Assembly: GCA_018920185.1 (NCBI GenBank)
Contig: JAHLMT010000003.1
Span: 2,055-66,054, forward strand
Reading direction: 5' to 3'
Source: Candidatus Aenigmatarchaeota archaeon
Lineage (GTDB): Archaea > Aenigmatarchaeota > Aenigmatarchaeia > CG10238-14 > SCSR01
Length of the DNA: 64,000 nucleotides
Part shown: in pieces, positions 30,593-47,887 of the stretch
How the letters are laid out: every line of letters starts with the position of its first letter
Position numbering within the stretch: position 1 is the stretch's first letter
The notes under the pieces: model-generated
What the model saw: only the letters and a program-made list of their open reading frames with translations
Database searches by the model: none
What the model was told of the DNA's origin: nothing
Made by a program: the position numbers and the translations under genes

Positions 30593-33511
30593 ATGAACGA
30601 GAATATCGAAAAGTTAGAATTATTAAAACAAATTATAGAGGCGATTAAAAATAAAAATTACGAAGAATTTTCTAGTTTGTACAGAGAATACATACTTAAT
30701 CATGATCTTCATTTGTCTCTTAAAACAAAGATAGAAATGCTCAATGAACTTTTATCCAATCTTGCATATAAAGATTATTTGGAACGAGTAAACCAAGAGA
30801 TATTAAAAGGAATGGAAAGGACAGAGAAGCAAGGTTCTCCCGCACCTCCACAGGTATCTCAACCACTTAAGATAGAATCACCAACATCTTCTCCGATACC
30901 AACTGCTAGACCTGCACTTCCTATACAGAAATCAACTGTATCTGGAAGACAGACGTCAATACCTGGGAAGGATACCCAAGCTAAAAAGAGTGTTCAACAA
31001 TCAAGAGCAGGCGAAAAGAACCCTGTAGTATATCCCACCCAAAAACCAACAGGAAAAAAGATACCGTCTACCACAAACAGCAGGTTAGACTTTAACGGAA
31101 AATTCGTAGGATGGGTGCAAGATGGTGACACCGAAGGGTTCCCAGGAATAGGAGGAGCGTATGTTGAAGCCAGATCTCTCACTGCAGACTTTGTCAGAGG
31201 TACAAGAACAGATAATAACGGCTATTTTGAACTCGAGGTACTTCCGGGGATATATAGTATTTCTGCTAAAGCGGAAGGTTTTGTAAAACATACAAAAATG
31301 GGTATACAAGTCAGTGAAGTGGCACCTGCTGGAGTACATTTTCTTTTACACAGAATTAAAAGAGTACCACGTGCTACACAACCAACTGCATCACCCACTA
31401 CCCAAGCACAACCAATTCCTCCTAGAAGTGCGTCACAGATTGGGAGAGAACCTCCTCCACCACCAGATGCTAGATATGGAGGTGAACTACCTGAAATTAG
31501 AATTACGGCAAGTCCTAATCCAGTAGTGGGAGGTCAATCGACAATTATATCTTGGGAGTCTAGAAATGCTACTCGTGTAAGAATTTCTATTCAACCACCT
31601 TTAGAAGGAGTTGGAGGATGGCTTGTATCTCATTCCGGAAGTAGACGAACGGCACCTTTATCAGTTGACACAACATTTACTGCGACAGCAATAGGGCCTG
31701 GAGGAGAAGCTACAGCTGAAGTAACTGTTTATGTCAGAGAAAAGACAGAAAGTGGAAAAGAGGAAGAAAGGAGAAGAGAACGGGAGAAACAACTCTTCGG
31801 TAAAGTAAAAGAGAGGCTCGGAATTGGGAAAGAGAGAAAGGTACATGAAACGAGATGGTTTCAATGGTTGCAAGATCACATAATCACCCTTATATTTAGT
31901 ATCGTTTTCTTTCTTTTACTCAAGTTTTGGTTGTATCCTCTAATTGTAAATAAGATTCCATTTATTGGTGGGGCACTTGGCAGAGGGGTTATATTTTCAT
32001 GGGGCATACCATTGCTTGTTTCAACTCTTTTCTTTTATACTATAAAAGACAAAGGTTGGTGGGGAACTATAAAAACTCTAATACCATGGGGTATTGGATT
32101 GCTTTTATTTTTGATTCTCTTCGGAACACACATACAATGGACTAACTTTAACTATTGGTTAGATAGATTAGACGCTCTTAAATTCATCGGTGTACCACAA
32201 GAATCTATCGATGATATTAAAAATAACATTAAAAGTGCCCTAGGCTTCCTGCAGTTCAAAGCTGTCGAGCCAAAAAAACCAGAAGCTAAGAAAATTGGTG
32301 GATTTGAAGCTATTGAGCTGAAATTTGGCAGTAAATATAACAACTTTGTTCCGCCACAGTTATTTGCAAGGACGAACTACACTCTACCTGTTACTGTGAA
32401 AAATCCCAACAAAATCGACACAAAGCTTGAGGTTGAAAATTTTGTTATCGAAGAGGTGTTTCTAAATAATAGAGGTAATAGGGTAATTTGTGGTGTTACA
32501 GATAAAGATGGGGAAGAGACTGATAAAATAGAGTTGGGTAAAATATCTCCAGAAGAGGAAAGATTAGTAACAATAAATTTTGGTAATAAAACAAAGTGTG
32601 CTAAGGATTCGAAGAGTCCTCTATCTCCTGTTAAATTTAGAATAGTATTTAAAGGTACTCCTGATAAAAATCCAGAGGTAAACAATAAAAAATGCGTGGA
32701 GCAGTGTGATCCAATAGTAGATAAAACTAATAAGACGTATGGATTATCACCGGGTAATATGCTTGACGAATCAGGAACTGTTTATATCTCATCGAGTAGA
32801 GAATGTGAGTGCAAAGTCAAAAGAATACATAACATCATGGATGAGCTGTGTTTCTTTGATAACGACAAGGCTCAGGTAACACTGCGCTCTACTTATGAGT
32901 TTAAAGTCCAAGGCAAAGGAGAATTAATCATAGTCAAAACCGAAGCTGATAGGAAGTTGGCACCTCCACCGACAATAACAAGTAGCGCCGGTCCTTTGAC
33001 TGTGACGACGTATTTTGTTTCAGATGTTCACATCCCAGGAAAATCAAAAACTAGCACTATGTTCATAGAGATATCAAATAAGGGCAATGGAGGTGCAACA
33101 ATCACAGATTTTAAAGTTAATGGCGTCGATCTCAGATCAGAAGGCCCCTTGACCTTACAAGATAATCTAGTGAAAATCTCTCAGTGCCAACCTAGTATTA
33201 TTAATTTTATTGAAGACGCTTTCACTTTATCTTGTTCTGTGAGTGTTGATGATAGTGAGGTGAACAGTAAAGTTACGGGTGCATATCTCACAGTTCCTGT
33301 GATAGTTGATATTAACTATTCATATTCACAAACGCATTCGACTACTATTAATGTGGAAAAAGCTGTCATACCCGAAGGTGTAGAAGATTATGATAAAATA
33401 ATAGAATTGGATGGGCGATTCAAACATTTACCATACTACTGTCCGAATGAGAAATCCCAAATAGCTGGAACACCTGCACTGAAGATATACGATATACAAT
33501 CCTCAAGCTAA
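30593..33511 (+). CDS. large multidomain membrane protein (CarboxypepD_reg-like and Ig-like N-terminal domains, ~4 TM, C-terminal lipoprotein-family domain)
   Basis: 972 aa with no N-terminal signal peptide and a Pro/Ser/Thr/Gln-rich low-complexity region. GAYVEARS..TDNNGYFELEVLPGIYSISAKAEGF is carboxypeptidase-regulatory-like. A hydrophobic cluster lies around aa 430-520. The C-terminal ~430 aa share blocks with the 14493/16449 lipoproteins (LPVTVKNPNK, FIEISNKGNGG, DINYSYSQTHSTTINVEK). Confidence 0.65.
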   Translation: MNENIEKLELLKQIIEAIKNKNYEEFSSLYREYILNHDLHLSLKTKIEMLNELLSNLAYKDYLERVNQEILKGMERTEKQGSPAPPQVSQPLKIESPTSSPIPTARPALPIQKSTVSGRQTSIPGKDTQAKKSVQQSRAGEKNPVVYPTQKPTGKKIPSTTNSRLDFNGKFVGWVQDGDTEGFPGIGGAYVEARSLTADFVRGTRTDNNGYFELEVLPGIYSISAKAEGFVKHTKMGIQVSEVAPAGVHFLLHRIKRVPRATQPTASPTTQAQPIPPRSASQIGREPPPPPDARYGGELPEIRITASPNPVVGGQSTIISWESRNATRVRISIQPPLEGVGGWLVSHSGSRRTAPLSVDTTFTATAIGPGGEATAEVTVYVREKTESGKEEERRREREKQLFGKVKERLGIGKERKVHETRWFQWLQDHIITLIFSIVFFLLLKFWLYPLIVNKIPFIGGALGRGVIFSWGIPLLVSTLFFYTIKDKGWWGTIKTLIPWGIGLLLFLILFGTHIQWTNFNYWLDRLDALKFIGVPQESIDDIKNNIKSALGFLQFKAVEPKKPEAKKIGGFEAIELKFGSKYNNFVPPQLFARTNYTLPVTVKNPNKIDTKLEVENFVIEEVFLNNRGNRVICGVTDKDGEETDKIELGKISPEEERLVTINFGNKTKCAKDSKSPLSPVKFRIVFKGTPDKNPEVNNKKCVEQCDPIVDKTNKTYGLSPGNMLDESGTVYISSSRECECKVKRIHNIMDELCFFDNDKAQVTLRSTYEFKVQGKGELIIVKTEADRKLAPPPTITSSAGPLTVTTYFVSDVHIPGKSKTSTMFIEISNKGNGGATITDFKVNGVDLRSEGPLTLQDNLVKISQCQPSIINFIEDAFTLSCSVSVDDSEVNSKVTGAYLTVPVIVDINYSYSQTHSTTINVEKAVIPEGVEDYDKIIELDGRFKHLPYYCPNEKSQIAGTPALKIYDIQSSS

Positions 33512-33648: not shown

Positions 33649-34683
33649 TTAACTCTGCACATTAACCTTAAAAATTCCCAGATCACTTACAGCTATGAGA
33701 GTGCCACTACTAATTTGATCACATGACGACGAAAAGGCTGAAACACCCCATCTGTAATTGCCGTTATCTAAAACTCTCATATAGTTTCTTGGACCGCCCC
33801 ATGTATTACTAATTGGAAGCTGTGTGTTTGGTGTTACCATATCGACATAAAATATACCGCTTTCAGATCTCACGCCTACATAATAGCAACTGGCTCCTTG
33901 TACAGATTCCCACACTAGTGTTGGGTTATTCACAGAAACTGTAGAATATAATGAAGGTCGTATGAGGTTCATACGACCCCAATTTCTAACTTTAACTACA
34001 GAAATTGCATTTGTTATTTGTGGTCCTGAACAGTCTGCATCTGTATATGCTGCAACATTAATTTGATACCAAGTGTCTGGAGTTAAATCTCGTGAAACAG
34101 TATATGTAGTTCCAGAAGTGGAATCTTGAAGAACAGGTCTGATAACAAACCAGTTATTATCTAGTTGAGATATACCTATTTTGTAACAATTTGCATTCTC
34201 TAACCTTGACCAAATGACTGTGGGTCTTCTCGAAACTTCTCCTAAATGATAGGGATATATTATCCTTAGTTCGGAAGAAGGTGGTACGAATGTCTCACAT
34301 CCTCTTAATCCACAAGAAAGAACGCAACGAGAATTTAATGGTTTTTGAACCTTCAGCCATAAACCCAGACCAGCGTGATCTCTCGTGAATCTTTCTATGT
34401 CAACACCCCCACGTTTAGTAAGATCTGTACCAAGTACGGCTTTCCATGCTCCGTTAACATACAGCCAACCATGAGAAATCCATCCTCCATCCCCACCCCC
34501 ACAATTTTGCGCCATCTCAGCTATAGTTCTACCTATCATAGGTTCTGTAACAGAAATCAAGTTCCAATCGTCTCTTAGTTCGATAGTTGTATCCTCTACA
34601 GGTCTCTGGGAGGTCTGAGACGATACTAGAGAGAAGAAAACAGATACAATAATTACACCTATAATAAAAAATGTTAATCTCAT
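33649..34683 (-). CDS. secreted protein with repeated Fn3-like modules
   Basis: 344 aa with signal peptide MRLTFFIIGVIIVSVFFSLVSS. An internal repeat is visible: PTVIWSRLENANCYKIGIS / PTLVWESVQGASCYYVGVRS. It is the last gene of the pilus-like operon. Confidence 0.55.
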   Translation of the reverse strand: MRLTFFIIGVIIVSVFFSLVSSQTSQRPVEDTTIELRDDWNLISVTEPMIGRTIAEMAQNCGGGDGGWISHGWLYVNGAWKAVLGTDLTKRGGVDIERFTRDHAGLGLWLKVQKPLNSRCVLSCGLRGCETFVPPSSELRIIYPYHLGEVSRRPTVIWSRLENANCYKIGISQLDNNWFVIRPVLQDSTSGTTYTVSRDLTPDTWYQINVAAYTDADCSGPQITNAISVVKVRNWGRMNLIRPSLYSTVSVNNPTLVWESVQGASCYYVGVRSESGIFYVDMVTPNTQLPISNTWGGPRNYMRVLDNGNYRWGVSAFSSSCDQISSGTLIAVSDLGIFKVNVQS

Positions 34684-34714
34684 ATTTTTATTTTAGAAAT
34701 AGTGTTATTTAATA

Positions 34715-36022
34715 TTATGAGGTAGAAAATTGAGGTGGTGGTAGTAACTCAGAAAACAGAGGTGGTGGCTGTTTATTTGCTGAATAAAACCGAAGTTCAA
34801 GATTTCTCATGTTTACGGATCTTTCGTTTTCGTCGTATATAGGATATCTCTCTTTACTTGATATTTTGACGAATGCAGTAACTGTTGCATCGTAATTGTA
34901 ACTGCAGACGGTGTTTTGATAGATATCGAAATATCGACCACATAACCAACTGGTACATTCGGCTGCCCGTCTAGAGCATTCTCCAATAATTCTACCATCT
35001 TCAATTCGAGGGCTTACACATACATTCTCATTTCTTATGTATGTCCAGCTTCCACACGGAGGTGGTAGCGGATCCCAAGGACAGCCGTAACTTGAACATA
35101 CTGAAAAGGCACATCCACAAGAAGTGGTTCCCGTCCGAGTTCCACTACATGATCCGCTTAAATATCCTACATAACTATTTACATCAATTTCGAGTCTCGC
35201 ATCACTATTGTCAAATTCTCTTGATTCTATTTGGGAAAACACTCTATCTCTAAAAATATCTTCAATTTGGTTACCGCATCTTTGTTCGAGTATACTAATC
35301 ACAGATTGTGGGGTATGTGGGAAATTCCACTCACATACATCGCCTATGTTTATCTGTTTGCAATCTTTTTCTACACCGTTTATATCTACATTATTCATTG
35401 ACGAATCTGCTTCTACTACAGAAACTTGCATGACATCAGAATTTACGAATTTTTCTTTGGCTATGTTTAAAATTTTTCCGAGTTTTATGGATGTATTTTC
35501 TCGTATGTTTCCGCTATCTGAAATTTCTGCTAATTCGCTTCTAAAGGTGATTTTATCCTGGGTGGTGAAGGAGGTGTTTATATAGTTTTCTGAGACATTA
35601 GCTTGTACAGTTCCTGAAATAGGAATGTGAAATCTGTCATCTAACTTAAAATCAAGTGAATCTATATAGGAATTTAGCTTATCGGAAATTTTTTCATTTA
35701 ATAAATTATAGAAATTTCCTGGGAAACATACAACATTCCCTACACGCCAGAATGGTATGTTGTCTATTTTGGCTGGATCGCAATTACCAGAATAACCACC
35801 GTATTTTGAAATCTCATAAGCTGCCTGATATACAGAATAATCAACTGCCTTGTGCAGAGCTCTTTTGAGAAATTCTATTTGATTGATTGTATTTATTACC
35901 GTCCTCTCTTTCACGCTTCTTACAACAGTTTCTGATTGATAGGCTATGCTGAAAGAAAAAACACCGATTACAGTTAAAATGCTTGCAGCCGCTATTAGAG
36001 CTGTATTAACTTGTGATTTCAT
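34715..36022 (-). CDS. pilin-like N-terminus protein with Cys-rich C-terminal region
   Basis: 435 aa starting MKS|QVNTALIAAASILTVIGVFSF. The C-terminal third has many Cys (CGCAFSVCSSYGCPWDPLPPPCGSW...). It has a 4-nt overlap with the upstream gene. Confidence 0.5.
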   Translation of the reverse strand: MKSQVNTALIAAASILTVIGVFSFSIAYQSETVVRSVKERTVINTINQIEFLKRALHKAVDYSVYQAAYEISKYGGYSGNCDPAKIDNIPFWRVGNVVCFPGNFYNLLNEKISDKLNSYIDSLDFKLDDRFHIPISGTVQANVSENYINTSFTTQDKITFRSELAEISDSGNIRENTSIKLGKILNIAKEKFVNSDVMQVSVVEADSSMNNVDINGVEKDCKQINIGDVCEWNFPHTPQSVISILEQRCGNQIEDIFRDRVFSQIESREFDNSDARLEIDVNSYVGYLSGSCSGTRTGTTSCGCAFSVCSSYGCPWDPLPPPCGSWTYIRNENVCVSPRIEDGRIIGECSRRAAECTSWLCGRYFDIYQNTVCSYNYDATVTAFVKISSKERYPIYDENERSVNMRNLELRFYSANKQPPPLFSELLPPPQFSTS

Positions 36023-36492
36023 TTCTTACCTACCTTTATTATTTCAACCAAATTACCTTCTCTGTAAGGCAAGACTATTAATGCATTTGTACCGACTTCA
36101 AGCGAATTGCAGTCTCCAAGCAAAATTCTTCTTGTGTCGAAAGATGGTGGAGTTACAGGTCTTCCTGTAAAAACAAAATAGCCTGTGTGGAATCCAGATT
36201 CTCGAATTATAGCCAAGCAATACTGTCCATATATGTGATTTCTCAAAATCGCTTCTATGTTGTCCAAAGGAGTTGATTGTGTACGAATTGTGAAGTTTTT
36301 GCCTATATCTTCATAAAATGCATCATTTGAAAGAATAGAAAGAAGGACATACTGTAAGTTTTGGAAGTCGTATGTAAAAGCAGTTTCTTTATCAATTGTA
36401 GTTTTAATTACAGAGGGTGGGACGACTAGACTTAACATTATAGTTAAAGTTCCTACAAAACCTACCAGTGGCAGTTCTGCTATTGATTTCAT
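36019..36492 (-). CDS. pilin-like protein
   Basis: 157 aa starting MKS|IAELPLVGFVGTLTIMLSLVV, with 4-nt overlaps on both sides. Confidence 0.5.
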   Translation of the reverse strand: MKSIAELPLVGFVGTLTIMLSLVVPPSVIKTTIDKETAFTYDFQNLQYVLLSILSNDAFYEDIGKNFTIRTQSTPLDNIEAILRNHIYGQYCLAIIRESGFHTGYFVFTGRPVTPPSFDTRRILLGDCNSLEVGTNALIVLPYREGNLVEIIKVGKK

Positions 36493-37022
36493 TCCACCAC
36501 GAAAACCGTTAGATTACCTACACGGATATCCGTGTCGGAGTACCTTATTGAAACTGGCAGACCTCTGTCGAGAATGGAAGAAATTCTATTTGGTACACAT
36601 GCTCTTATTTGTTCAGTGTTAACTGCTGATGCGATACAGTTAATAAAATTTCTGATAACTTCGCTTTGGGAATCCCGAGAAATAAATGTGTAGCTCACTC
36701 GGGTGAGTTCATCCGTGATATTAATTCTTGCATATGAGTTTGGATAGAAAACCCTTAAATAAGGGTTAGAGGCGGATTTACTTTGTAATTTGATTGCGTC
36801 TAATACCCCACGATAATATGTGTTGCCATCGAAATAAATCAACTCTGGGTCAGACATCACAGCACTCGCTAAATTTAAGGCTTTCTGTTCAATTTCATTT
36901 TCTTCCACGGTCGGTGTAATTTTCGTCACTTGACCAGGAAGAATGAGAGCTAGAGACATGAGCAACACCCCAGATGTAAGTAGGGTGAAAATTTGTTCTG
37001 TTGCAAGAATCACAGCTTTCAT
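36489..37022 (-). CDS. pilin-like protein
   Basis: 177 aa starting MKA|VILATEQIFTLLTSGVLLMSLALIL. It directly abuts the upstream gene. Confidence 0.5.
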   Translation of the reverse strand: MKAVILATEQIFTLLTSGVLLMSLALILPGQVTKITPTVEENEIEQKALNLASAVMSDPELIYFDGNTYYRGVLDAIKLQSKSASNPYLRVFYPNSYARINITDELTRVSYTFISRDSQSEVIRNFINCIASAVNTEQIRACVPNRISSILDRGLPVSIRYSDTDIRVGNLTVFVVE

Positions 37023-37400
37023 TCAACCGACCTCTATAAAAGGTCTACCATTTTCAAACACTTTTCTTATCGTTAATGTGTCGACATTTTCTCTTGAAAA
37101 ATCTCGTAGGTTACTTAGAGTTTTGTAGGAAGCTGTATCTTTCATAGTAACTGTTATTAAAGCTGCGTCGGCTGTCACATTTGCATTTTCTGGAAGTTTG
37201 TAGACGAGTCTAATTTCTGATGGTGCGCTGTTTGATAAAGCTATTAAACTTGCTAATTCTTTTGCTTTAGCTAAAGCCGACTCTTTTTCCATAACTACTT
37301 TTATATCATCTATCATCCCAGGTAATTGTACAAACAGAAGAGAAGAGATAGCAATTATGCCGACAATTGTGATTGCATCTGTAACTATTGCAGCTTTCAT
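37023..37400 (-). CDS. pilin-like protein
   Basis: 125 aa starting MKA|AIVTDAITIVGIIAISSLLF. Confidence 0.5.
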   Translation of the reverse strand: MKAAIVTDAITIVGIIAISSLLFVQLPGMIDDIKVVMEKESALAKAKELASLIALSNSAPSEIRLVYKLPENANVTADAALITVTMKDTASYKTLSNLRDFSRENVDTLTIRKVFENGRPFIEVG

Positions 37401-37429
37401 TAAATTATAATAACTTCTGATTAAATTAA

Positions 37430-37693
37430 TTATTTACAATCTTCTTTAGTATTGGGTTTTGTTATACCAAATTGTTCACAATCTGTTGGTTCTTTTTTGT
37501 CCCAGTCGAATGGTGGAGGTCTGTTGTTTAACAAGCTGCTACAGTAACTGGTTTTTTTAGCTGCACATGATGCTTCAGATGTACCAAATTTAGTTGTGTC
37601 TATCCAACCCCAGAAGATTGCAACTATGAAGAAAAGAGAGATGGCTATTACAGCTATTAGAAAAACTGCTTGGACTGCGATAGATTTGAGCAT
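37430..37693 (-). CDS. small Cys-containing pilin-like protein
   Basis: 87 aa starting MLKSIAVQAVFLIAVIAISLFFIVAIFWGW, followed by a 4-Cys head. Confidence 0.5.
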   Translation of the reverse strand: MLKSIAVQAVFLIAVIAISLFFIVAIFWGWIDTTKFGTSEASCAAKKTSYCSSLLNNRPPPFDWDKKEPTDCEQFGITKPNTKEDCK

Positions 37694-37742
37694 ATAATGA
37701 ATTAGAAATTATAGAAATTAAACTCTGCTATTCTAGTAGCCC

Positions 37743-38117
37743 TTAACCCGCACTGCCGCCACCGCCACCACCACCTGCCGGTGGTGTTGACACTGACCCT
37801 ATTGTTGAACACCAATTTCTGAAGCTCCATTTTGAGGCGGGTTCGTCGGGGAGAGCACGATCACTTCCAGTTATCTGTTTTAAACATACGTTGTTATCTT
37901 CATTCTTAAAAACGCCATTAGGTGGCGGTATATTTGTATTGTATCCTGCTGATGTCCATTTGTTACATGCTTCTAGAAAATCCGTTCTGCACTGTTCAGA
38001 GGATACGCCCCCACCAAATTTAATACCAGAAACAAAGAGCCAGTAACCCAGAAGGCCAATAACACCAACACCAAGAAAAATAGCTATAATATAAGGAACT
38101 GCTATCCCTTTTTTCAT
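37743..38117 (-). CDS. type IV pilin-like protein, IPIPYIIAL family, glycine-tailed
   Basis: The track start at 38126 is GTG; the ATG at 38117 gives MKKG|IAVPYIIAIFLGVGVIGLLGYW. It has a 5-Cys head and ends PPAGGGGGGGSAG. Confidence 0.6.
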   Translation of the reverse strand: MKKGIAVPYIIAIFLGVGVIGLLGYWLFVSGIKFGGGVSSEQCRTDFLEACNKWTSAGYNTNIPPPNGVFKNEDNNVCLKQITGSDRALPDEPASKWSFRNWCSTIGSVSTPPAGGGGGGGSAG

Positions 38118-38739
38118 CGTTTTCACTTAACTTTATATTTGTTTTGATGAGTATTTAAATATTTTATTTTAATTGGAATTTATTGCGGTACTTTTAATAC
38201 ATCGAATTTACATACCATTCTTTAACCAAATCGTAGCTCACGACTATTATAAAACTATCTCTATCGGAATCATATTTAATCCGATTTCTTTAACAAAATT
38301 CCAGCAGTCAACTACCTCACTAGTAACTGTTCTACTAATAACAAGGGTAGTTGCGTGAAATTGTATGAAATGTGTATAGACCTATATTTGTTTGTTACTA
38401 GCATCTGTTAACTACGGAGATATCACCTAGAAAGTGGCATAAAAATAAATAGTCTGCACAGGAGTTGGTGCAGTTAAATCTCAATCTCATAGAAACTTTA
38501 CTGAGATGTCTAGCTTCTACTTTTTGCTCTTTGTAGGATATCTGTTCGTGCTTCTCTATTTACGATTTTCATCGTTACAAGTTCTGTCACTGAAATTGTT
38601 CCAGATTAAAATTCTCCACCAGATTCTACTTCGCACGAAGACCTTATTAATTGTTTTGGTGAGAGCTCTGCCATTTTCCATCTTTTGTTTACAGACCTCA
38701 TTTACAACCATAGAAAAAGGACCAGACTTTAACATCTCC

Positions 38740-39744
38740 TCACCCTCCACCTCCACCCCCAGATGGTGGTTGGCAGGTTCCTCTCCATACAAAAAACTCT
38801 CCACCAGGGTCTCTTTCGCATCTACAATCAGTTAATCCTGGTACTTGAGAATGCTCAGGTGGTGGGGCTATATCTGCTTTTTTGGGAGTACATGTATACC
38901 AAACTCCATCACCACCACAAACAAGACCATATTTTACCCTACTTCCATAAAATGCTCTACGCGGAATCTCTTTATAAGCTAATAGATTACATGCATTTCG
39001 GTCTCTTGCTTCATCAAAACATCTATCAGATATTTTCACATCATCACCAAACATAAAGTTATTAATAACTAGTCCACGTGGATTCCTTTCCTCGTCGCAA
39101 GCTGGATAGTCATGCCGGTAAGGAGTCGTGGCGCATCTTGCTAAATTTACAATTCCGTAAGTATCATGACACTCGACATCACTATCACCGTCTCTAACAC
39201 CACACCTAGGATTTGTAGGATCGCCGCCTGTGATTATCTGTCTTGGACTACAACCCCTACTCGTTATTTTATTTTGTAAGCACTCAGATAGGAATTGACA
39301 ATTTCCGTTTTGAATTAAAGTACCAGGACTGATATAATAAACTTGAGATTCGTCTATGTCGGGCATTTCGTCGTCAGCAAGAATGATACAGTTGTTTTGA
39401 ATTAAAATATTTCTTGTTGGATCTGTTTCTATCATAAAATAAGCAGTATAATAATTTGGAGCTCCACATCCGATCAGGTTTGTATCAGCATCTGTCCAAT
39501 GTTTTTTAATTCCTTCTCGAGATACGAGATGGAAAGCATGCACATCATGCTCACTAGAACCTACTTTCATTTTAACATGAATCGCTTTACCACTTTCCGG
39601 CACCCCAAACCCACCAAACTTCTCTTGCAACCACTCGAAAATATCAATTCCAAAAGCTTTCATCAGAAAAGACATGCCAACAATGATGACAGCTATCATT
39701 AGAAAAAGCTTCATCACGCCTTCGATGGCCATGGATTTGGACAT
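38740..39744 (-). CDS. pilin-like N-terminus, large Cys-rich protein, glycine-tailed
   Basis: 334 aa starting MSKSMAIEGVMKLFLMIAVIIVGMSFL. It has about 16 Cys and ends QPPSGGGGGG. Confidence 0.55.
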   Translation of the reverse strand: MSKSMAIEGVMKLFLMIAVIIVGMSFLMKAFGIDIFEWLQEKFGGFGVPESGKAIHVKMKVGSSEHDVHAFHLVSREGIKKHWTDADTNLIGCGAPNYYTAYFMIETDPTRNILIQNNCIILADDEMPDIDESQVYYISPGTLIQNGNCQFLSECLQNKITSRGCSPRQIITGGDPTNPRCGVRDGDSDVECHDTYGIVNLARCATTPYRHDYPACDEERNPRGLVINNFMFGDDVKISDRCFDEARDRNACNLLAYKEIPRRAFYGSRVKYGLVCGGDGVWYTCTPKKADIAPPPEHSQVPGLTDCRCERDPGGEFFVWRGTCQPPSGGGGGG

Positions 39745-39777
39745 TAATAATAATTTAGCTGGAGAGAAGTAAATAAA

Positions 39778-39954
39778 TTAACAATTTGGTAAAAGTGGTA
39801 CTACATTTTTAATAAAACATTCCAACCCTCTCAATAACAATCCGCCGAAAAATGCAGCTATCTTATCCTGGAAATACCAGATAAGAATCAAAGCAGTGAT
39901 AGCAAACACCAAAGCTATAACAATTCTTAATGTCTCGCCGAATGTGCCTTTCAT
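39778..39954 (-). CDS. mini pilin-like ORF (58 aa, below ORF-track cutoff)
   Basis: My own translation: MKGTFGETLRIVIALVFAITALILIWYFQDKIAAFFGGLLLRGLECFIKNVVPLLPNC. Its ATG immediately follows the TGA of the upstream mini-ORF. Confidence 0.4.
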   Translation of the reverse strand: MKGTFGETLRIVIALVFAITALILIWYFQDKIAAFFGGLLLRGLECFIKNVVPLLPNC

Positions 39955-40068
39955 TCATCCACCCTGAAATTTTTGTGTTAGTTGATATGCAGATAAAAGA
40001 ATCAACAAAGTTATCGCTAACATAATTATAAACCACATGATGAATGCACTAATCCCTCCTTTCTTCAT
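39955..40068 (-). CDS. mini pilin-like ORF (37 aa, below ORF-track cutoff)
   Basis: My own translation: MKKGGISAFIMWFIIMLAITLLILLSAYQLTQKFQGG. It starts 16 nt after the platform gene stop. Confidence 0.3.
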   Translation of the reverse strand: MKKGGISAFIMWFIIMLAITLLILLSAYQLTQKFQGG

Positions 40069-40084
40069 AATTTTATTTTGACTT

Positions 40085-42046
40085 TCATACTATTAACTTC
40101 TCTATAGATACCACAGAAGTGAACAAGTAATATGTGAACAAAAGCGTGGCGAAATATACAATGCAACTGTACATCAGAACTTTAGAAATCATCAGTCTTT
40201 TTAACAAATTCTCGTCACCATTTGTGATTGTGCTCAATGTTATGGCGATAATCGTCACTATTTCAATAAGGTATATCCCAACAATCAGCTGGAAGCCGTG
40301 AATTGGTATAATCGCGCTCAAGTTAGTTATTGAAGACAAAACTCCAGTTCCGATGTCACCAGCTGGGCCTAATGATGAACCTATGTTAGAATAAATTGAA
40401 TGTATCGCCTCGCCCAATGAAATTAAAAGTCTTGTCATTATAGCTGCTATAGTTACCACAACACCAGCACTTAACGGAGCAAGGATGACACTTTGTATGT
40501 TCATCGTCGACGTCACTTCTTCAAGCAAGTTTTTCAATTCTTCATCCACTTCATGCATATCCTTCAGATATTTTGAAATTATAACCATTGCTTTTGATGC
40601 GCTTTGCATTCCTCTCTTTGAAGTTTCTACTATCACATGCATCGTAGATTCTACTATAGACGATGGGAAATAATTGATTGCACCATACCTTTTATCAAAA
40701 ATGGAATTTTCAAATGTCATGCCGAATGTTTCTATGTTATATAAAATTTTGTCGAAGAATTTTGATATTCCTAAATTTTTGATATCATTTTTTATTCTTC
40801 TCAATGCAGTTTCTAGAGGAATCCCGCGGAGGATCATGTTACCTAATTGAAACAATGCTTCTGCAAATTCGTTCTCTATATCAAAGATTTCTTTTCTTAT
40901 TTTCAGCTTTCTTTTTACAGAGAGGTAGCTGTATGTTATGATACCTAGGGATATACCTAAGGTAATTAACATTGAATGGATGAGCAGACTGAAGCTGAAC
41001 ACACTTTTTTCGCCTATAATGTTGAATAGCCCGAATGCAATTAATGGTAGAGAAACTAGCAATGGTATAGTGTACGGTTTCTCGTAAAATTTAACTACAA
41101 AAAAATCTGGGTGTTTGCTTAAATCTGGTTGGTGGAAACTGTAGGGTCTTTTTTCCAGATAATTGTTCATGAAAAGATAAACTATCAAAGGAAGAAAGAA
41201 ATCATAGCCTAAAGCTAGAGCAACAGGTTGAATTAACTCTGGGAGAAACAGACTAACTATAGGGAAGAAAACTAATCCAATTATCGGTAGTAAGATTCCT
41301 AAAGCATTCAGAATTGTAACAGGTTCTTTCAATTGGCGGGAGTATATTCTCATTCTTTCTTTTGTACCATCTAGCATGACAGAAACAGCTTCGTCGAGAA
41401 ACCTCTCTCTTTTTGTCTGTGATTCTACACTAGAATTTTTTATCAGATAGAGTGATTCTGTGAATTCTTTATTTTCTCTCTCCCATTTTTTAATAAAGTA
41501 ATCTAAAGCATCTTCGATTCTGTCGTATTTTCTTGTGTAAACCCCCCATAAAAGCTCTCTCAAATCTATTGCAAGCGCCCCTTTTAGATTTCTTGCAGCA
41601 AATCTGACAGCATTCTCTAGATTCGGTGATAAGTGCATGGAAATGCTCATGTAGATTGTTGCAAGGACCATTTCAGACGAAGCATTAATTCTAAAAACAG
41701 TCGAGTAGTGGGAAGGGTAGTTGAAGAGAAAGTAGAATGCTATACTAGCTAAAATAAGAGAAAATATTACAGATGAGAAAGAAAGGGAATCAAAGATTAC
41801 AAGGAATGTTATAGAAACCAAAAGGATTAATAAAGTCGATAGAATTGCTAGAGAAAACGCTCCTTTTGGTGTAGCTTTCAAGTGGGAGAATTCAATTGCT
41901 TCCCGATAATTTTTTTCTAAACCTTTTGGTATTGGAAATATAGAAAATTTTTCAGCTACATTACATAACTTTTCATAAAGGGTGAGTTTTTTGGCTAATT
42001 TCTCTTCTCTTAGGAATTCTTCATATTCGCGAGAGATTATCGGCAT
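40085..42046 (-). CDS. polytopic membrane platform protein (FlaJ/TadC/T2SS-F-like)
   Basis: 653 aa with two blocks of TM helices separated by soluble helical domains. It sits in an operon with the secretion ATPase. The family is inferred from architecture and context. Confidence 0.6.
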   Translation of the reverse strand: MPIISREYEEFLREEKLAKKLTLYEKLCNVAEKFSIFPIPKGLEKNYREAIEFSHLKATPKGAFSLAILSTLLILLVSITFLVIFDSLSFSSVIFSLILASIAFYFLFNYPSHYSTVFRINASSEMVLATIYMSISMHLSPNLENAVRFAARNLKGALAIDLRELLWGVYTRKYDRIEDALDYFIKKWERENKEFTESLYLIKNSSVESQTKRERFLDEAVSVMLDGTKERMRIYSRQLKEPVTILNALGILLPIIGLVFFPIVSLFLPELIQPVALALGYDFFLPLIVYLFMNNYLEKRPYSFHQPDLSKHPDFFVVKFYEKPYTIPLLVSLPLIAFGLFNIIGEKSVFSFSLLIHSMLITLGISLGIITYSYLSVKRKLKIRKEIFDIENEFAEALFQLGNMILRGIPLETALRRIKNDIKNLGISKFFDKILYNIETFGMTFENSIFDKRYGAINYFPSSIVESTMHVIVETSKRGMQSASKAMVIISKYLKDMHEVDEELKNLLEEVTSTMNIQSVILAPLSAGVVVTIAAIMTRLLISLGEAIHSIYSNIGSSLGPAGDIGTGVLSSITNLSAIIPIHGFQLIVGIYLIEIVTIIAITLSTITNGDENLLKRLMISKVLMYSCIVYFATLLFTYYLFTSVVSIEKLIV

Positions 42047-42072
42047 TATTAAATTTTAATTTTTAAGAAGAA

Positions 42073-42375
42073 TTAAGATTGAGGGCATGGACTATTCGGG
42101 ATGGGTTTCCAACCTGGTATTATAGTTTGGCAGAAATTTCTGCAGTTTTGGGTATTTAATTCTCTGGCGCTACCGCATTTTGTTCTCTGCTTCTCCCAAT
42201 TTTCTATAGTTTGAGCTCCACAAAATTCTACTTTTCTTGCTGTACATTCTGCTTCTGATCCAACACTGCCTCCCCTTCCTCCAGTTGAAATAAACCAATA
42301 GGCTAAAACTACAACTACTATTACACCTAGTATCAGAGCTATAATATGCGGAATGGGGATTGTAGCTTTTCTCAT
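42073..42375 (-). CDS. type IV pilin-like protein, IPIPYIIAL family
   Basis: 100 aa starting MRKA|TIPIPHIIALILGVIVVVVLAYW, with a 7-Cys head. Confidence 0.6.
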   Translation of the reverse strand: MRKATIPIPHIIALILGVIVVVVLAYWFISTGGRGGSVGSEAECTARKVEFCGAQTIENWEKQRTKCGSARELNTQNCRNFCQTIIPGWKPIPNSPCPQS

Positions 42376-42387
42376 AATAATTAACCA

Positions 42388-42753
42388 TTACACTGGGCAA
42401 CAAAGAACTTGATTACTCCGACAACCTGCAAGTCCTCCTCCTATGTTTTCATATCCACTACTACATGGTGGTGATTGCCCTTGTGGGATATCTCTGCATT
42501 CACATCCTAAAATGGTTTTACATCTCTCTTGGTCTGGTCTCTCACAATTGCCAAGTGGCACAAGTGGTTGGACACTGAAACGCGTTAGTTTCCACTGTGA
42601 ACAATACAGATGTTGCCTTGTATCACATTGAGTTGTCTGACCCGTACCGATGGTCTTGGAACTTTGATACGATATCCAATAACCAAGAAGGGCAATCAAT
42701 ATAACGCCAAAAATTAAAGCAATTATATACGGGATTGGTATGGCACCTTTCAT
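42388..42753 (-). CDS. type IV pilin-like protein, IPIPYIIAL family
   Basis: The track ORF extends to 42807 on a non-ATG start and would overlap the ATPase gene. The internal ATG at 42753 gives MKG|AIPIPYIIALIFGVILIALLGYW. It has an 11-Cys head ending VLCCPV. Confidence 0.6.
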   Translation of the reverse strand: MKGAIPIPYIIALIFGVILIALLGYWISYQSSKTIGTGQTTQCDTRQHLYCSQWKLTRFSVQPLVPLGNCERPDQERCKTILGCECRDIPQGQSPPCSSGYENIGGGLAGCRSNQVLCCPV

Positions 42754-42773
42754 AAATATTACTTTGATTTTCT

Positions 42774-45011
42774 TTAACTTATTCTTTTCTTTAACCACTC
42801 CAACCATTTGTCATATATCATGTCTGAATCCAGTGCGCCTACTTCCTGGCGAACCTGCTCTGATATAAGATGGAACATAGAATTTGACTCAACTACATTC
42901 TCTGCTTCAAGTATATGATCCTTTCCAGATTTGACTGCCAAGTCAACCAGCGTTTGCTTTACTCTCGCACGTAACATAATATTGTCCCATACAGCATCCC
43001 ATTGTCCTCTCCATTCTCTAACTCTTTTGGCTATTTCATTCAACACTTGCGACTCGCCATCAATCAAAGTATCAGTTGGTTTAAGCTTGTCTTCCTTCGC
43101 AGAATATTCCATCAAATTAACAAATCCTCCTTCATCTAATGGATCGCTTTTCCACAGTTTTCTTACTTCTGTTAGTTCTGTCACTCTTCTGAATCTGTGT
43201 AAGCCGTCGGGAGATTTCAACTGATTGCAAACTGTGATTAAATCTAAAGCTTTGAAGCTTGTTGGTGGAACGCCCAAATCATGGACAACTCTGTCATACA
43301 CACCATAAGCTGACTCACCATGAATGGTACCGGCAACTACATTAGCCAAAGCGCCTACTCTCATCGCCTCATATAGAGCTAAGCTTTCTACAGATCTCAC
43401 TTCACCTATGATTAAAACAGAATCGCCTAATCTTAATGCAGTCCTTAATGCTTCATCCGCAGGTAATTCTGTCTCTACTCTTGTAATTACAGAACGAGAT
43501 TTCATTCTTTCTATGTTGTAACCCAATTGTCTTAGTGATGTAACAGGAAGTTCTAGAGTATCTTCAACTGTAAGAATGCGAAACTTAGGCATTATTTCTA
43601 GCATTAACGCACCCAACAGAGATGTTTTCCCCGATCCCCGACCACCAGCAACTAGTAAAGCTCTTCCACCATCGACGATAAAACTCATCAACCCGGCATA
43701 CAGAGAATCAAACATTTTATACTTGATTAAAAGTGGGAATGTCCATGGCTTTTCTCTATGTCTTCTAAAAGCAAATGCCAACCCTTCTGGTGATAATGTT
43801 CTTGTGATAGCTGCTACTCTTGCCCTACCGCCGGGAACTAATAATTCTGTATCTAAAACTGGATTTGACTCGTCCAATGGACGGCCAGAATACAATCTAA
43901 ATCTTGTTGCCCATGATTCTGCGTCTTCAATTGTTGGAATTAGGTTTGTTTCACATTCTTCAAAATCTGAATGGTTTATGTAGATGGGACTGGAACCTAT
44001 AGGTGCATTAATAAATATATCCTGAATTTTTTCATCGGATAGCAAGAGTTCCAGAATGCCGAAACCAGCTGTGTATCTGGATAAGATTATAGCCAATTCT
44101 TCTATTTCTTGAGCTGTCAGGTTTACATTCATGGTTCGTGAGATATCACGAATTAAATCTCTTCCCAAATTTTTGAAAAGTTCTCTTGATTTTTCTGGTT
44201 CGATTGTCTCTGCCTCTGTAGGACGGTGAGCTACAAGATACCTTCTAGCCGAATCTAGTATTGTATACTTTTCATCGCTTAGCACGAATTCCTTTGGAAT
44301 TATATGATAAAGGTATCGTACTTTTGTTGGGAGTTTGTATATCTCAACATCAGCTCCGGGAAGAGAATATTTTTCTACTAGTTTTGCCCCTTTCGGAATT
44401 GTCAACATGAATCTTGTTAACATGAAATTTGGACGAACTGTTGGTGAAAACAACTCGCGATATATATCTCTACTACCAATTTGATAATTTTGCAGAATTG
44501 GTAAAGCCTTTTGAATTAATGTGCATCCTTCAAGAATGTTCTTAATTGGAATCAAGGCATTGTCTAAATAATGCGTGAAACATATCTTCTGTTCGAATGG
44601 TGCTGTACCTTCCAATACTTTGTTTGCATTAACCATCTTAACTATTCGCAGATAAGCACCTATTGGATCTTTTCTTAAAACTTCAAAAATTAGAAATTGT
44701 AAATCTGCGAGCCTTTTTGGAAAAAGTTTTTCGCATTGTGGAGGACCTAAATTTTTCAGACTAATAATCTTATCGATGTTCAGAATTCGGTTGTAAGCTT
44801 CAGCAATTTCACGCAGCATTTTTGTTTGTTCTGCATCATACTCATTCTCACGAGCTTCGATTAAAACAACTCGATTGGCGTCACGAGCTTTTAAAAGGGT
44901 ATCAATAACAATAGCCATGGTAGCTTCTGAATCTTCTATACTCGGGGCTATAGCCCAATTCATGCAATTGATTCTCAGAACACCGTCGACGACTTCATAT
45001 TCTATGGCCAT
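42774..45011 (-). CDS. type II/IV secretion system ATPase (FlaI/PilB/VirB11 superfamily) with long N-terminal extension
   Basis: 745 aa with Walker A LVAGGRGSGKTSLLGAL and Walker B region VLIIGEVRS, followed by the conserved GTIHG segment. About 330 aa precede the ATPase core. Confidence 0.9.
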   Translation of the reverse strand: MAIEYEVVDGVLRINCMNWAIAPSIEDSEATMAIVIDTLLKARDANRVVLIEARENEYDAEQTKMLREIAEAYNRILNIDKIISLKNLGPPQCEKLFPKRLADLQFLIFEVLRKDPIGAYLRIVKMVNANKVLEGTAPFEQKICFTHYLDNALIPIKNILEGCTLIQKALPILQNYQIGSRDIYRELFSPTVRPNFMLTRFMLTIPKGAKLVEKYSLPGADVEIYKLPTKVRYLYHIIPKEFVLSDEKYTILDSARRYLVAHRPTEAETIEPEKSRELFKNLGRDLIRDISRTMNVNLTAQEIEELAIILSRYTAGFGILELLLSDEKIQDIFINAPIGSSPIYINHSDFEECETNLIPTIEDAESWATRFRLYSGRPLDESNPVLDTELLVPGGRARVAAITRTLSPEGLAFAFRRHREKPWTFPLLIKYKMFDSLYAGLMSFIVDGGRALLVAGGRGSGKTSLLGALMLEIMPKFRILTVEDTLELPVTSLRQLGYNIERMKSRSVITRVETELPADEALRTALRLGDSVLIIGEVRSVESLALYEAMRVGALANVVAGTIHGESAYGVYDRVVHDLGVPPTSFKALDLITVCNQLKSPDGLHRFRRVTELTEVRKLWKSDPLDEGGFVNLMEYSAKEDKLKPTDTLIDGESQVLNEIAKRVREWRGQWDAVWDNIMLRARVKQTLVDLAVKSGKDHILEAENVVESNSMFHLISEQVRQEVGALDSDMIYDKWLEWLKKRIS

Positions 45012-45053: not shown

Positions 45054-45479
45054 ATGGCTCTACCAGCTTTACCATCATTACCTTTTGAAAAACACGAGGG
45101 GGACATAACCAAATTAACTGCAGAGCTTGTTAAAAGGGTAAATGACGATAATAGAAGAATAAGAATCATAGAACAGAGGATCGACAGATTGGAAAATTCG
45201 ATAGAATCAATACAGGAAAATACACTTACTCAGTTAAATGACCTGAAACTTGCACTTGAAAAAATTAATAACAAAATTGTTTCTGTGTCTGAAAAATTGG
45301 CTAACCTAGAAAGCGAGATTCTCAGACTTAACAAAGAACTATCTAAAACCGCTACAAAAAGAGAATTGAAACAAATGGAAACTTTTATTGATTTAATAAA
45401 CCCTATTACAGCAAAGTTTGTCACTAAAGATGAAGTAGAAAAAATGATTGAGACTGTGTCGAAAAACAAAAAAGCTTAG
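45054..45479 (+). CDS. coiled-coil protein (MALP N-terminus)
   Basis: 141 aa with heptad-like charged/hydrophobic periodicity through most of the length. No family recognised. Confidence 0.5.
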   Translation: MALPALPSLPFEKHEGDITKLTAELVKRVNDDNRRIRIIEQRIDRLENSIESIQENTLTQLNDLKLALEKINNKIVSVSEKLANLESEILRLNKELSKTATKRELKQMETFIDLINPITAKFVTKDEVEKMIETVSKNKKA

Positions 45480-45518
45480 ATTTATAGTAATTAAAAGGAA
45501 ATTAAATATAGTGAAATA

Positions 45519-46181: not shown

Positions 46182-46214
46182 GTTTTATACCCACCAACTA
46201 TATATTAGATACTC

Positions 46215-46691
46215 ATGGCATTTCCTATAGAGAATTTTCTTTCGCCTAATCTAACAAATATGTTGATAACTTTTGTAATTCCTTTTCTGATAATTTTTAC
46301 TGTGCTTTTAGCTGCTCTAAAAAGAACACGAATTTTAGGGGACAATCTCTTCATTTATGTTATAATTTCTCTGGGGTTGACAACAATGATTTATGCTATT
46401 AATCCTAACAATATTTTCGGGTTTCTTACATCTTATTTGTTTCAAATCGGAGTTATTGGAAGTATTATTGCCTTGATAGGTATAATTGCTGTATTTTTCT
46501 TTACCATAATCAGGAAAGGTGTTGAAACTGCTTCTAAAGCCGGGGGAATGAAATTAGAATCTATACTTAAAGAAGAGAGAAGACTCGAACAAAGAATTAT
46601 GAAAGAAGGCGATTTAAACAGACGATTACAACTACTACAACAACTAGAAGATCTCCAAAGAAAAGAAAGAGCTTTGAGATATAGAAAATAA
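46215..46691 (+). CDS. membrane protein, FLLPFIL-motif family, with C-terminal coiled coil
   Basis: 158 aa. ITFVIPFLIIFTVLLAALKRTRILGDN is shared with the next three genes. It has ~3 TM and a charged helical tail. Confidence 0.5.
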   Translation: MAFPIENFLSPNLTNMLITFVIPFLIIFTVLLAALKRTRILGDNLFIYVIISLGLTTMIYAINPNNIFGFLTSYLFQIGVIGSIIALIGIIAVFFFTIIRKGVETASKAGGMKLESILKEERRLEQRIMKEGDLNRRLQLLQQLEDLQRKERALRYRK

Positions 46692-46767
46692 ACATTTTTG
46701 CATCAGGTGGAAAGCATTAGCTAACGAAACCTTAAATTTTTACTAAACCAAATTATCAAAAGGTAAA

Positions 46768-47846: not shown

Positions 47847-47887
47847 TATATTTAAATCTTTAGAAAAGAAATTATAATCAGTTGAAA

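Follow-up and report, generated by a model that had tools for sequence, protein, structure and literature searches.

Which surface machine is encoded by the gene cluster at positions 33649-45011 of the 64,000-nucleotide stretch of DNA analyzed here (the window; contig JAHLMT010000003.1 of assembly GCA_018920185.1, from a Candidatus Aenigmatarchaeota archaeon)? A first-pass annotation had read the cluster as an oversized type IV pilus-like operon, and this reading was supported by our analysis: the secretion ATPase of the cluster is not ArlI-like and its small proteins show class III-like N-termini. We conclude, with a probability of roughly 0.78, that the cluster specifies a type IV filament (pilus) machine of non-archaellar type in this DPANN archaeon. 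The window has a G+C content of about 35% and carries an archaeal signal recognition particle RNA, and the same locus is found in several metagenome-assembled genomes (MAGs) at NCBI, for example GCA_038998935.1 and GCA_038996915.1.

An open reading frame (ORF) check of the window found each gene where the first-pass annotation had placed it, always on the minus strand and, apart from one gap, with 4-nt overlaps or 0-49-nt spacers. The cluster consists of the ATPase, a platform protein, eleven class III-like proteins and a Sec-type protein at the end; the array of pilin-like genes is thus real, but it holds eleven members and not the twelve or so first counted. The features are as follows (a slash marks the predicted cleavage site).

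42774-45011, minus: secretion ATPase, 745 aa; Walker A GGRGSGKTS; core at residues ~284-693 of T2SSE/VirB11 type; residues 1-283 an extra N-domain
42388-42753 (ORF to 42807), minus: Cys-rich pilin-like protein, 121 aa; MKG/AIPIPYIIALIFGVILIALLGYW (MKG/AIPIPY)
42073-42375, minus: Cys-rich pilin-like protein, 100 aa; MRKA/TIPIPHIIALILGV (MRKA/TIPIPH); 6 Cys
40085-42046, minus: platform protein (TadC/FlaJ/PilC type), 653 aa; single gene; 9 hydrophobic segments (~9 transmembrane, TM)
39955-40068, minus: mini-pilin 1, 37 aa; MKKG/GISAFIMWFIIMLAITLLILLSAYQLTQKFQGG (MKKG/GISAFI); identical in the sister strain L084
39778-39954, minus: mini-pilin 2, 58 aa; MKG/TFGETLRIVIALVFAITALILIWYF (MKG/TFGETL); 2 C-terminal Cys
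38740-39744, minus: N-anchored Cys-rich protein, 334 aa; MSKS/MAIEGVMKLFLMIAVIIVG (MSKS/MAIEGV); 16 Cys, hypervariable centre, poly-Gly C-terminus
38127-38739, no strand: non-coding gap, 613 bp
37743-38117, minus: Cys-rich pilin-like protein, 124 aa; MKKG/IAVPYIIAIFLGVGVIGLLGYW (MKKG/IAVPYI); hypervariable C-terminal domain; candidate major pilin
37430-37693, minus: pilin-like protein, 87 aa; MLKS/IAVQAVFLIAVIAISLFFIV (MLKS/IAVQAV); 4 Cys; found in 14 loci
37023-37400, minus: minor-pilin-like protein, 125 aa; MKA/AIVTDAITIVG; first of a coupled four-gene block
36489-37022, minus: minor-pilin-like protein, 177 aa; MKA/VILATEQIFTLL (MKA/VILATE)
36019-36492, minus: minor-pilin-like protein, 157 aa; MKS/IAELPLVGFVG
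34715-36022, minus: large pilin-like protein, 435 aa; MKS/QVNTALIAAAS; 16 Cys, variable Cys-rich segment at ~295-355; candidate tip subunit or adhesin
33649-34683, minus: Sec-type exported protein, 344 aa; Sec-like N-terminus, 8 Cys, weak fn3-like matches below the Pfam threshold

The ATPase, in which Walker B, Asp-box and His-box were recognised by visual inspection of the sequence, matches the Pfam family T2SSE (6e-18, 65 bits against a gathering threshold of 24.9). It is identical or nearly identical to proteins called 'type II/IV secretion system ATPase' in Candidatus Aenigmatarchaeota MAGs. Its best match in PDB was the non-archaellar GspE of Archaeoglobus fulgidus (2oap, 2.8e-27), with Caulobacter CpaF (2e-20) and Sulfolobus FlaI (9e-20) behind it, and the matches were confined to residues 284-693. 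All the NCBIfam profiles named here stayed far under their cut-offs: the FlaI equivalog NF058587 gave 121.9 bits against 550, BasE (NF053672) 62.5 bits against 1000 and ComGA 43 bits against 300 (2.3e-11), and the scores of TadA and PilB were of the same kind.

An archaellum, that is, a rotary swimming motor, would account for FlaI being the top NCBIfam name of the ATPase (3.1e-35), for the label 'flagellar protein FlaI' given by JGI to some of its orthologues and for the roughly 20 bits that FlaC_arch scores on a coiled-coil neighbour (20.2 bits, under the 27.8 cut-off). However, the FlaI score is 122 bits where 550 are asked for, the matches of the ATPase to A. fulgidus GspE and CpaF are at least as good as that to FlaI, and 283 extra residues precede the core whereas archaellum ATPases have the minimal form (10.64898/2026.04.22.720090). 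Searches of the neighbours against Pfam and NCBIfam gave no match to ArlH, ArlF, ArlG, ArlX, ArlCDE or archaellin. The first-pass annotation had seen no archaellin or FlaF/G/H among the subunits, and this holds. The closest relative of the ATPase with a solved structure is GspE and not FlaI; we regard the archaellum as having a negligible chance of being the right answer. The machine does have ATPase and platform superfamilies and class III signal peptides in common with archaella, but the Arl genes and a score at the level of the FlaI equivalog are absent.

Residues 1-283 of the ATPase are a lineage-specific N-terminal domain. They matched no named family, and a HMMER search of 1.84e9 representatives recovered the domain in only 283 clusters at 50% identity, always at the N-terminus. 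The proteins that bear it measure about 720-800 aa or 1260-1780 aa, the latter being the length class of intein-bearing orthologues. Some orthologues of about 1265 aa (P0059, P0097, P0100 and P0103) contain intein/homing-endonuclease domains (PF14528, PF14890), and the copy in the window is without an intein.

The second component of the machine is the 653-aa protein, which we take as a single-gene platform of the TadC/FlaJ type because the Pfam family T2SSF matches its orthologues (15 of 28, best 7e-11). Platform orthologues were found in 66 loci, and a profile of the family searched against PDB sequences gave nothing significant (GspF at E 0.17). Directly 3' of the platform gene lie the two ORFs of 37 and 58 aa which the first-pass annotation had noted as missed by the ORF track. 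They are genuine genes, because homologous small ORFs occupy the same position behind the platform gene in relatives: the ORFs are homologous among Aenigmatarchaeota loci, and small hydrophobic ORFs are found there in Nanohaloarchaeota. Mini-pilin 1 would, after cleavage, retain little beyond one helix. Mini-pilin 2 is Flp/EpdE-like in size; its family stands at this position across Aenigmatarchaeota and the gene is called in L084 and in L087-L089.

The third line of evidence comes from the N-termini of the small proteins. PibD substrates have a basic residue at position -2 and a small residue at -1. The eleven proteins of the window begin with M-x(0-2)-K-[G/A/S] followed by a hydrophobic helix of about 20 residues. 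Among proteins with an N-terminal hydrophobic segment in about 76 related loci, [KR][GAS] stands just before this segment in 222 of 306 downstream N-anchored proteins and in 32 of 105 control genes of the same loci, an enrichment far beyond chance. Position -2 of the motif in relatives is K in 95% of cases and position -1 is G (77%), A (18%) or S (5%), with the Met mostly one or two residues upstream; where subunits of the window have K-S, their orthologues have K-G or K-A. These N-termini have the archaeal class III (prepilin) signal-peptide pattern that the first-pass annotation had suspected in the small proteins, and cleavage itself is predicted from the pattern.

Two gene starts should be moved. 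The first small ORF (42388-42807) is most likely translated from an internal MKG at 42753, which gives 121 aa, and the 127-aa ORF most likely from MKKG at 38117, which gives 124 aa. Both shifts are backed by orthologues and by the gene calls in identical MAG loci, and the NCBI gene call in one such locus is the 121-aa start itself. The 121-aa protein is a paralogue of the 100-aa and 124-aa proteins, and a search of 5.8e9 proteins gives its family 144 members, each of them annotated as hypothetical.

Every Cys-containing exported protein has an even number of Cys residues (10, 6, 2, 16, 4, 4, 2, 2, 16 and 8), which suggests disulfide-stabilised heads. N-glycosylation sequons are not enriched, seven of the eleven subunits having none. 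The window does encode a 707-aa oligosaccharyltransferase of the STT3/AglB type (60638-62761, minus) and a GT4 glycosyltransferase (18689-20074, minus), in spite of the near-absence of N-X-S/T sequons. Two subunits end in poly-glycine tails after PP(S/A): the 334-aa protein ends with QPPSGGGGGG (38740-38760) and the 124-aa protein with TPPAGGGGGGGSAG (37743-37790). The sister strain L084 keeps the first tail (GGGGGE) and is without the second.

Is the layout of the cluster kept in relatives? We compared 79 species-level loci with full-length ATPase orthologues (51-89% identity) from Aenigmatarchaeota and Nanohaloarchaeota, taking one genome per GTDB species and including the complete genomes of SG9 (L065) and Nanosalina VS9-1 (L075). 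The layout recurs across both DPANN phyla. The ATPase gene is followed by none to three small Cys-rich pilins, present only in the subclade of the window, and then by the platform, a single platform-sized gene standing 3' of the ATPase in nearly every locus. Behind it come one or two mini-ORFs that encode a hydrophobic helix, most of them showing a class III-like motif, then a large N-anchored Cys-rich protein, and finally several class III-like proteins of which the last is large (350-930 aa). The 45 loci with enough flanking sequence have a median of six class III-like and seven N-anchored subunits and a maximum of twelve, compared with eleven in the window. Having many subunits thus characterises the whole lineage, in which 6-12 N-anchored subunits per locus are the rule. 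The subunits are many, as first described, but 'oversized' is only partly right, since their number is usual for the lineage and the Epd cluster of Methanococcus maripaludis itself comprises 11 genes (bioRxiv 10.64898/2026.04.22.720090).

The genes for the 125-, 177-, 157- and 435-aa proteins form a translationally coupled block, in which stop and start codons abut or overlap by 4 nt, and the same coupling was seen in L008, L030 and L077. The 334-aa protein aligns with the first 274 residues of a 570-aa orthologue in L008 at 34% identity. Upstream of the ATPase gene, and outside the coordinates of the first-pass annotation, the divergent genes at 45054-48535 also belong to the pilus system:

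45054-45479, plus: cytoplasmic coiled-coil protein, 141 aa; divergent from the ATPase gene, 42-bp spacer
45519-46181, plus: coiled-coil protein, 220 aa; conserved N-terminal small domain, P/Q/E-rich linker, C-terminal coiled coil
46215-48535, plus: four paralogous membrane proteins (158, 179, 179 and 217 aa); 3-6 predicted TM segments; N-terminal 'GFYxFLLPF' motif

Homologues of the 141-aa protein, which gave only generic coiled-coil matches, are present in 65 of the 79 loci (8 of 9 in Nanohaloarchaeota) and those of the 220-aa protein in 70 (9 of 9). The four paralogues form a 5-TM family without a match in Pfam, NCBIfam or PDB, and homologues of its members were found in 23 to 44 of the 79 loci. 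These coiled-coil and membrane proteins are more conserved than any pilin. Some of the relatives' loci are interrupted by two-gene insertions, namely a PIN/MazE-type toxin-antitoxin pair between the coiled-coil genes and a 185/137-aa pair in the pilin array (L010:8807-9471; L077:16972-17942; L030:17032-17984); the operons tolerate insertions.

Several results weigh against a pilus. The ATPase is classed here by profile scores and PDB matches, and the platform protein of the window itself reaches 22.6 bits with T2SSF (1e-4), 2.6 bits short of the gathering threshold of 25.2. None of the eleven subunits matches a pilin family of Pfam or NCBIfam (there was no match to Pilin_N, DUF361 or Class_IIIsignal in Pfam). 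A GxGD scan of the 79 related loci, covering 10 kb around the ATPase gene, found no prepilin peptidase. The AlphaFold2 (AF2) models give little help: the head of the modelled 124-aa pilin is helical and not the usual beta-sheet head, Foldseek searches of PDB with this model and with that of the 435-aa protein gave no match with E < 0.1, and the confidence of both models is low to moderate, a pilin fold past the N-terminal helix not being demonstrated. The model of the 124-aa protein, built on an alignment of 72 sequences, has a mean predicted local distance difference test score (pLDDT) of 67.7 and shows a helix at residues 8-31 with a small helical head. That of the 435-aa protein, built on 5 sequences, has a pLDDT of 57.6 and shows a helix of 68 residues (5-72) followed by a mixed alpha/beta region. 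The 435-aa protein has only five homologues in 5.8e9 proteins, and neither its family profile nor that of the 177-aa protein found anything significant in PDB; the latter protein was also without a Pfam match. Pfam found almost nothing in the downstream proteins encoded by relatives (144 small and 83 large ones were searched), save for an occasional enzyme or lectin module.

The same negative results could be expected if the small proteins were ordinary N-anchored membrane proteins beside an ATPase/platform pair with another role, or beside a remnant of one, and no filament were made. Such an explanation would agree with the lack of any pilin family match, with the lack of a peptidase in the window or within 10 kb of the relatives' ATPase and with the inconclusive models (pLDDT 67.7 and 57.6, no Foldseek match), and a pilin-less ATPase/platform remnant, subsystem 4D, has been described in archaea (10.64898/2026.04.22.720090). 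It does not explain, however, why K-[G/A/S] directly before the helix is strongly enriched and evolutionarily maintained, why co-directional tight packing and coupling are conserved across two phyla, or why the core is 99.6-100% identical between strains and 51-89% across phyla. We consider it very improbable and prefer the type IV filament machine.

Concerning the peptidase, the first-pass annotation had reported none in the window, and we obtained the same result: Pfam scans of ten polytopic or neighbouring ORFs gave no Peptidase_A24, and no GxGD motif was present in twelve membrane or locus-flanking ORFs, including ones without a Pfam match. Prepilin processing in this organism is unproven because the peptidase is missing both from the window and from the 10 kb around the ATPase in relatives.

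A comparison with a close relative showed which parts of the locus vary. In the sister strain L084 (GCA_038999305.1) the genes stand in an unchanged order, and both the gap and the 344-aa gene are present. At the DNA level most of the locus is 98-99.6% identical, two blocks fall to 93.9% and 96.5%, and three stretches inside genes cannot be aligned. At the protein level the coiled-coil proteins are 100% identical, the ATPase 99.6% and the platform 99.7%, the 87-, 125-, 177- and 157-aa proteins 98-99%, the 121-aa protein 81% and the 58-aa protein 77%. Judged from these identities, the core machinery is under strong purifying selection. The replaced segments lie in three proteins: the 435-aa protein (84% identity) has its Cys-rich segment at ~295-355 replaced or shortened/deleted, the 334-aa protein (46.6%) has residues ~54-275 replaced with both ends kept, and the 124-aa protein (39.7%) keeps its first 34 residues identical and has its head replaced. 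In type IV pilins under diversifying pressure the N-terminal helix is conserved and the exposed head is replaced. The kept helix and the replaced head therefore argue for subunits which are surface-exposed and polymerise through their helices.

Some homologues of the variable subunits carry enzymes. The first ~220-250 residues of the 435-aa protein are homologous (E 1e-10 to 1e-15) to terminal large subunits of two other loci, both with a K-G class III-like N-terminus: a 759-aa protein of L061 (18331-20610) with SLT and Amidase_2 (N-acetylmuramoyl-L-alanine amidase) domains, and a 928-aa protein of L039 (12811-15597) with SLT and Peptidase_C39_2. The 157-aa protein matches both ends of a 720-aa protein of L010 (19918-22080), and a GH5 (cellulase) domain is inserted between the two matching parts. 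Laminin_G_3, CARDB and GH2 modules are also found among the relatives' downstream proteins. Functional modules can therefore be inserted into the pilin scaffolds of this type of locus. In the window, the 435-aa and 157-aa proteins themselves have no recognised enzyme or binding domain and show variable Cys-rich segments only. A publication about archaeal peptidoglycan hydrolases says nothing of pilin-type N-termini (PMC12352652).

These enzyme-bearing homologues, which are of the same family and at the same position and stand behind class III-like N-termini, could also point to a short pseudopilus for surface display or secretion, comparable to the Sulfolobus bindosome or to a type II secretion system (T2SS), whose stalk would present or release enzymes and binding proteins. 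That a Sec-type protein closes the cluster of the window would suit such a device, and it has been argued that archaeal type IV filament (TFF) machines are widely 'functionalised' by class III signal-peptide proteins (10.64898/2026.04.22.720090). Yet the subunits of the window are without a recognisable enzyme or binding domain, the BasE score of the ATPase is 62.5 bits against a cut-off of 1000, and eleven subunits, with duplicated small pilins whose helices are near-identical, suit a polymer. Besides, tip display and a long filament are not mutually exclusive. A short pseudopilus in place of a filament is in our opinion unlikely.

A further proposal, tentative and rather doubtful at present, goes beyond the type IV filament machine itself. 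The head of the 124-aa protein, the 334-aa protein and the 435-aa candidate tip protein might be the determinants of host specificity and host breaching in a modular tip-display pilus, a new TFF subtype. The large terminal subunit would then be swappable between strains, and some Aenigmatarchaeota would be armed with SLT plus amidase or C39, or with GH5. Such a filament would attach to a partner, possibly a bacterium, and open its wall locally. The N-domain of the ATPase, the two coiled-coil proteins and the 5-TM paralogues would mark the TFF subtype as one not described before.

The variable domains bear as well on a third function proposed for such machines. In a DNA-uptake (competence-type) pilus, a ComG-like set made up of ATPase, platform, one major and four minor pilins would import environmental DNA for nucleotide salvage in an organism of reduced biosynthesis. 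The gene order does look like ComGA-GB-GC-GD-GE-GF-GG with its four-gene minor-pilin block, ComGA is among the weak NCBIfam matches of the ATPase (2.3e-11), and it has been suggested that DPANN archaea take in DNA through pili (PMC9563170). On the other hand, ComGA gives 43 bits where its cut-off is 300, the cluster and the conserved flanks contained no gene for a DNA-binding, ComEA/ComEC-like or nuclease protein, and the replaced exposed domains and the lytic and lectin modules of relatives point to cell surfaces and not to DNA. DNA uptake is thus a highly unlikely function for this locus.

How might the type IV filament machine work? The prepilins would be inserted in the membrane and trimmed after K-[G/A/S] by an A24 peptidase of the PibD/FlaK type encoded elsewhere. 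A hexamer of the ATPase, docked on the platform, would extract them and stack them through their N-terminal helices into a filament. The body of this filament may be formed by the Cys-rich 'IPYIIAL' pilins (121, 100 and 124 aa), by the helix-only mini-pilins (37 and 58 aa), or by both. By analogy with GspH-K and ComGD-G, the coupled 125-177-157-435 block would provide the complex that initiates the filament or forms its tip, the large variable subunit lying on the outside, and the divergent coiled-coil and paralogous membrane proteins would be lineage-specific accessories of the cytoplasm and the membrane. Disulfide-stabilised, strain-variable exposed domains would fit the attachment of a small cell to a host or partner, and we infer that attachment to a partner or host cell is the function of the pilus.

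The cluster was first taken for a single operon, but the 613-bp gap probably divides it into two transcription units and probably contains an internal promoter that serves the distal genes. About 40 nt upstream of the ATG at 38117 there is an A/T-rich TATA-like box, which suggests at least two transcription units. The gap is kept in L084, where the aligned block that spans it (window 38026-38940) is about 94% identical; it showed no similarity to any related locus and no Rfam match. The possibility that the gap is the decayed C-terminal domain of the longer L008 orthologue was discarded as tblastn, blastn and tblastx gave no signal.

Which part of this machine was known before? Hamm et al. (2024, Nat Commun, Fig. 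4; PMC11291902) described a pair of conserved type IV pilus-like loci which cluster-2 DPANN phyla, Aenigmarchaeota and Nanohaloarchaeota among them, have in common. The loci encode a CpaF-like ATPase, TadC and coiled-coil proteins, several proteins of the Candidatus Nanohaloarchaeum antarcticus loci were detected by proteomics, and filament proteins were annotated only in Locus 1 (PMC11291902). Our locus shows the same CpaF-like ATPase, TadC-like platform and adjacent coiled-coil genes, as seen in L065 and L075, and it is probably Locus 2, matched by description. No GroEL, GatE or Mpg-sized neighbours stood out near the two Nanohaloarchaeota loci inspected, a judgement made without a Pfam scan of the neighbouring genes. 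Makarova, Wolf and Koonin (2019, Fig. 2A; PMC6393860) interpreted unannotated proteins with signal peptides, encoded next to FlaI/TadC in DPANN, as divergent 'dark matter' pilins; their islands of small proteins by ATPase and TadC are like ours, but were given as a general statement without this locus type, counts, motif statistics or strain comparison. Already known, then, are the ATPase/TadC/coiled-coil loci of cluster-2 DPANN and the unannotated pilins beside FlaI/TadC. New here are the full extent of the locus with its array of 6-12 class III-like proteins and its 5-TM paralogues, the motif statistics, the mini-pilins, the strain-variable cassettes and the enzyme-bearing homologues.

Among the characterised archaeal systems, the features of the locus resemble those of the system 2 or clade 2 euryarchaeal pili (Haloferax PilB/PilC; PMC4858521; Sivabalasarma & Albers 2026), a likeness by features. 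Both have an extended ATPase N-terminus, one platform gene and many pilins, with and without a clear class III motif, as well as membrane accessories and large adhesin-like proteins, and GspE is the closest relative of the ATPase with a solved structure. They differ in that Pfam detected no pilin of the PilA family (DUF361/Pilin_N) in our locus and none of the arCOG02911 type was apparent, and in that it has no MinD-like gene and has coiled-coil and 5-TM proteins instead. Epd (system 1) and Tad/Flp share with it a large cluster with many minor pilins (Epd), their headless major pilin is similar in size to the 37- and 58-aa mini-pilins, and CpaF matches the ATPase of the window as well as FlaI does. 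However, system 1 and Tad have two platform genes, and Epd has a peptidase in the cluster (EpdA), whereas one platform and no peptidase were found here. In comparison with the Aap, Ups and bindosome systems of Sulfolobales, there is no BasE-type ATPase, and no Fe-S or Ig-rich accessory of the AapX/UpsX type was detected in the cluster.

Two further likenesses concern organisation only, with neither sequence homology nor a demonstrated structural one. The block of four coupled small-to-large pilin-like genes recalls GspH-K of T2SS and ComGD-G. The relatives' pilin N-termini fused to SLT, amidase, C39, GH5 and lectin modules recall the modular pilins PilB/PilC of Streptococcus sanguinis (PMC8179133, PMC9934059).

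DPANN archaea rely on physical contact with other cells, and the molecules that make and specify this contact are mostly unknown. The locus supplies an inventory of the parts of one conserved candidate contact machine shared by Aenigmatarchaeota and Nanohaloarchaeota, in which the ATPase, the platform, the coiled-coil proteins and the N-terminal helices are frozen and three exposed domains are exchanged between near-identical strains. If the variable and enzyme-bearing tips set the partner range, they could serve as host-prediction markers for uncultured DPANN and as targets for heterologous binding or lysis assays. About 16 'hypothetical proteins' per genome in this lineage could be renamed as components of a type IV filament.

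The membership of the genes at the 3' end of the cluster is uncertain. The Sec-type 344-aa protein has no homologue among the 79 GTDB-species loci; its homologues were found only in MAGs of the same species (L084, 93% identical, and L087-L089). Convergent to the cluster end there is a neighbouring gene:

30593-33511, plus: membrane/surface protein, 972 aa; CarboxypepD_reg (Pfam 4.5e-9), three TM segments, large C-terminal region

This gene is also present in L084 and L087-L089, and in L008, L030 and L007, where it is cut off. Its product may be a linked envelope protein, although its membership in the pilus system is likewise uncertain.

Elsewhere in the window a second surface/pilin-like cluster was identified at 1749-8337 on the plus strand, with no ATPase or platform nearby. 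The view of the first-pass annotation that the fragment is otherwise stripped to essentials does not stand in the presence of this cluster, whose members are:

within 1749-8337, plus: two proteins of 308 and 594 aa; bacterial Ig-like domains (Big_7 1e-22)
within 1749-8337, plus: 428-aa protein; Laminin_G_3
within 1749-8337, plus: 132-aa protein; MKG/TYYMIEAVV; weak sub-threshold DUF7262 match
within 1749-8337, plus: 205-aa protein; MKG/QVFLL
within 1749-8337, plus: 503-aa protein; MRG/ISPLVSMVLVIAF; DUF7289 1.4e-6 and Laminin_G_3 3e-25

These are recognisable archaeal-type pilins or adhesins, which either this machine or a different one could use as substrates.

A c-di-GMP-I riboswitch match at 11641-11699 (plus strand; 35.8 bits, gathering threshold 35) lies inside the ORF 11133-11873 and is most likely a false positive. 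The tRNA finders gave different results in two places: the Rfam tRNA at 14398-14479 (plus) is not in the ARAGORN output, and the ARAGORN tRNA-Leu at 52543-52632 (plus) is not in the Rfam gathering list. At the 3' end of this tRNA-Leu there is an insertion of ~1.33 kb (52607-53994), which is absent from L084 and is bounded by 60-nt direct repeats (52607-52666 and 53935-53994, 92% identical). Its two small ORFs (92 and 141 aa) match nothing in Pfam, an integrase is lacking, and the insertion resembles a small integrated element or what is left of such an element.

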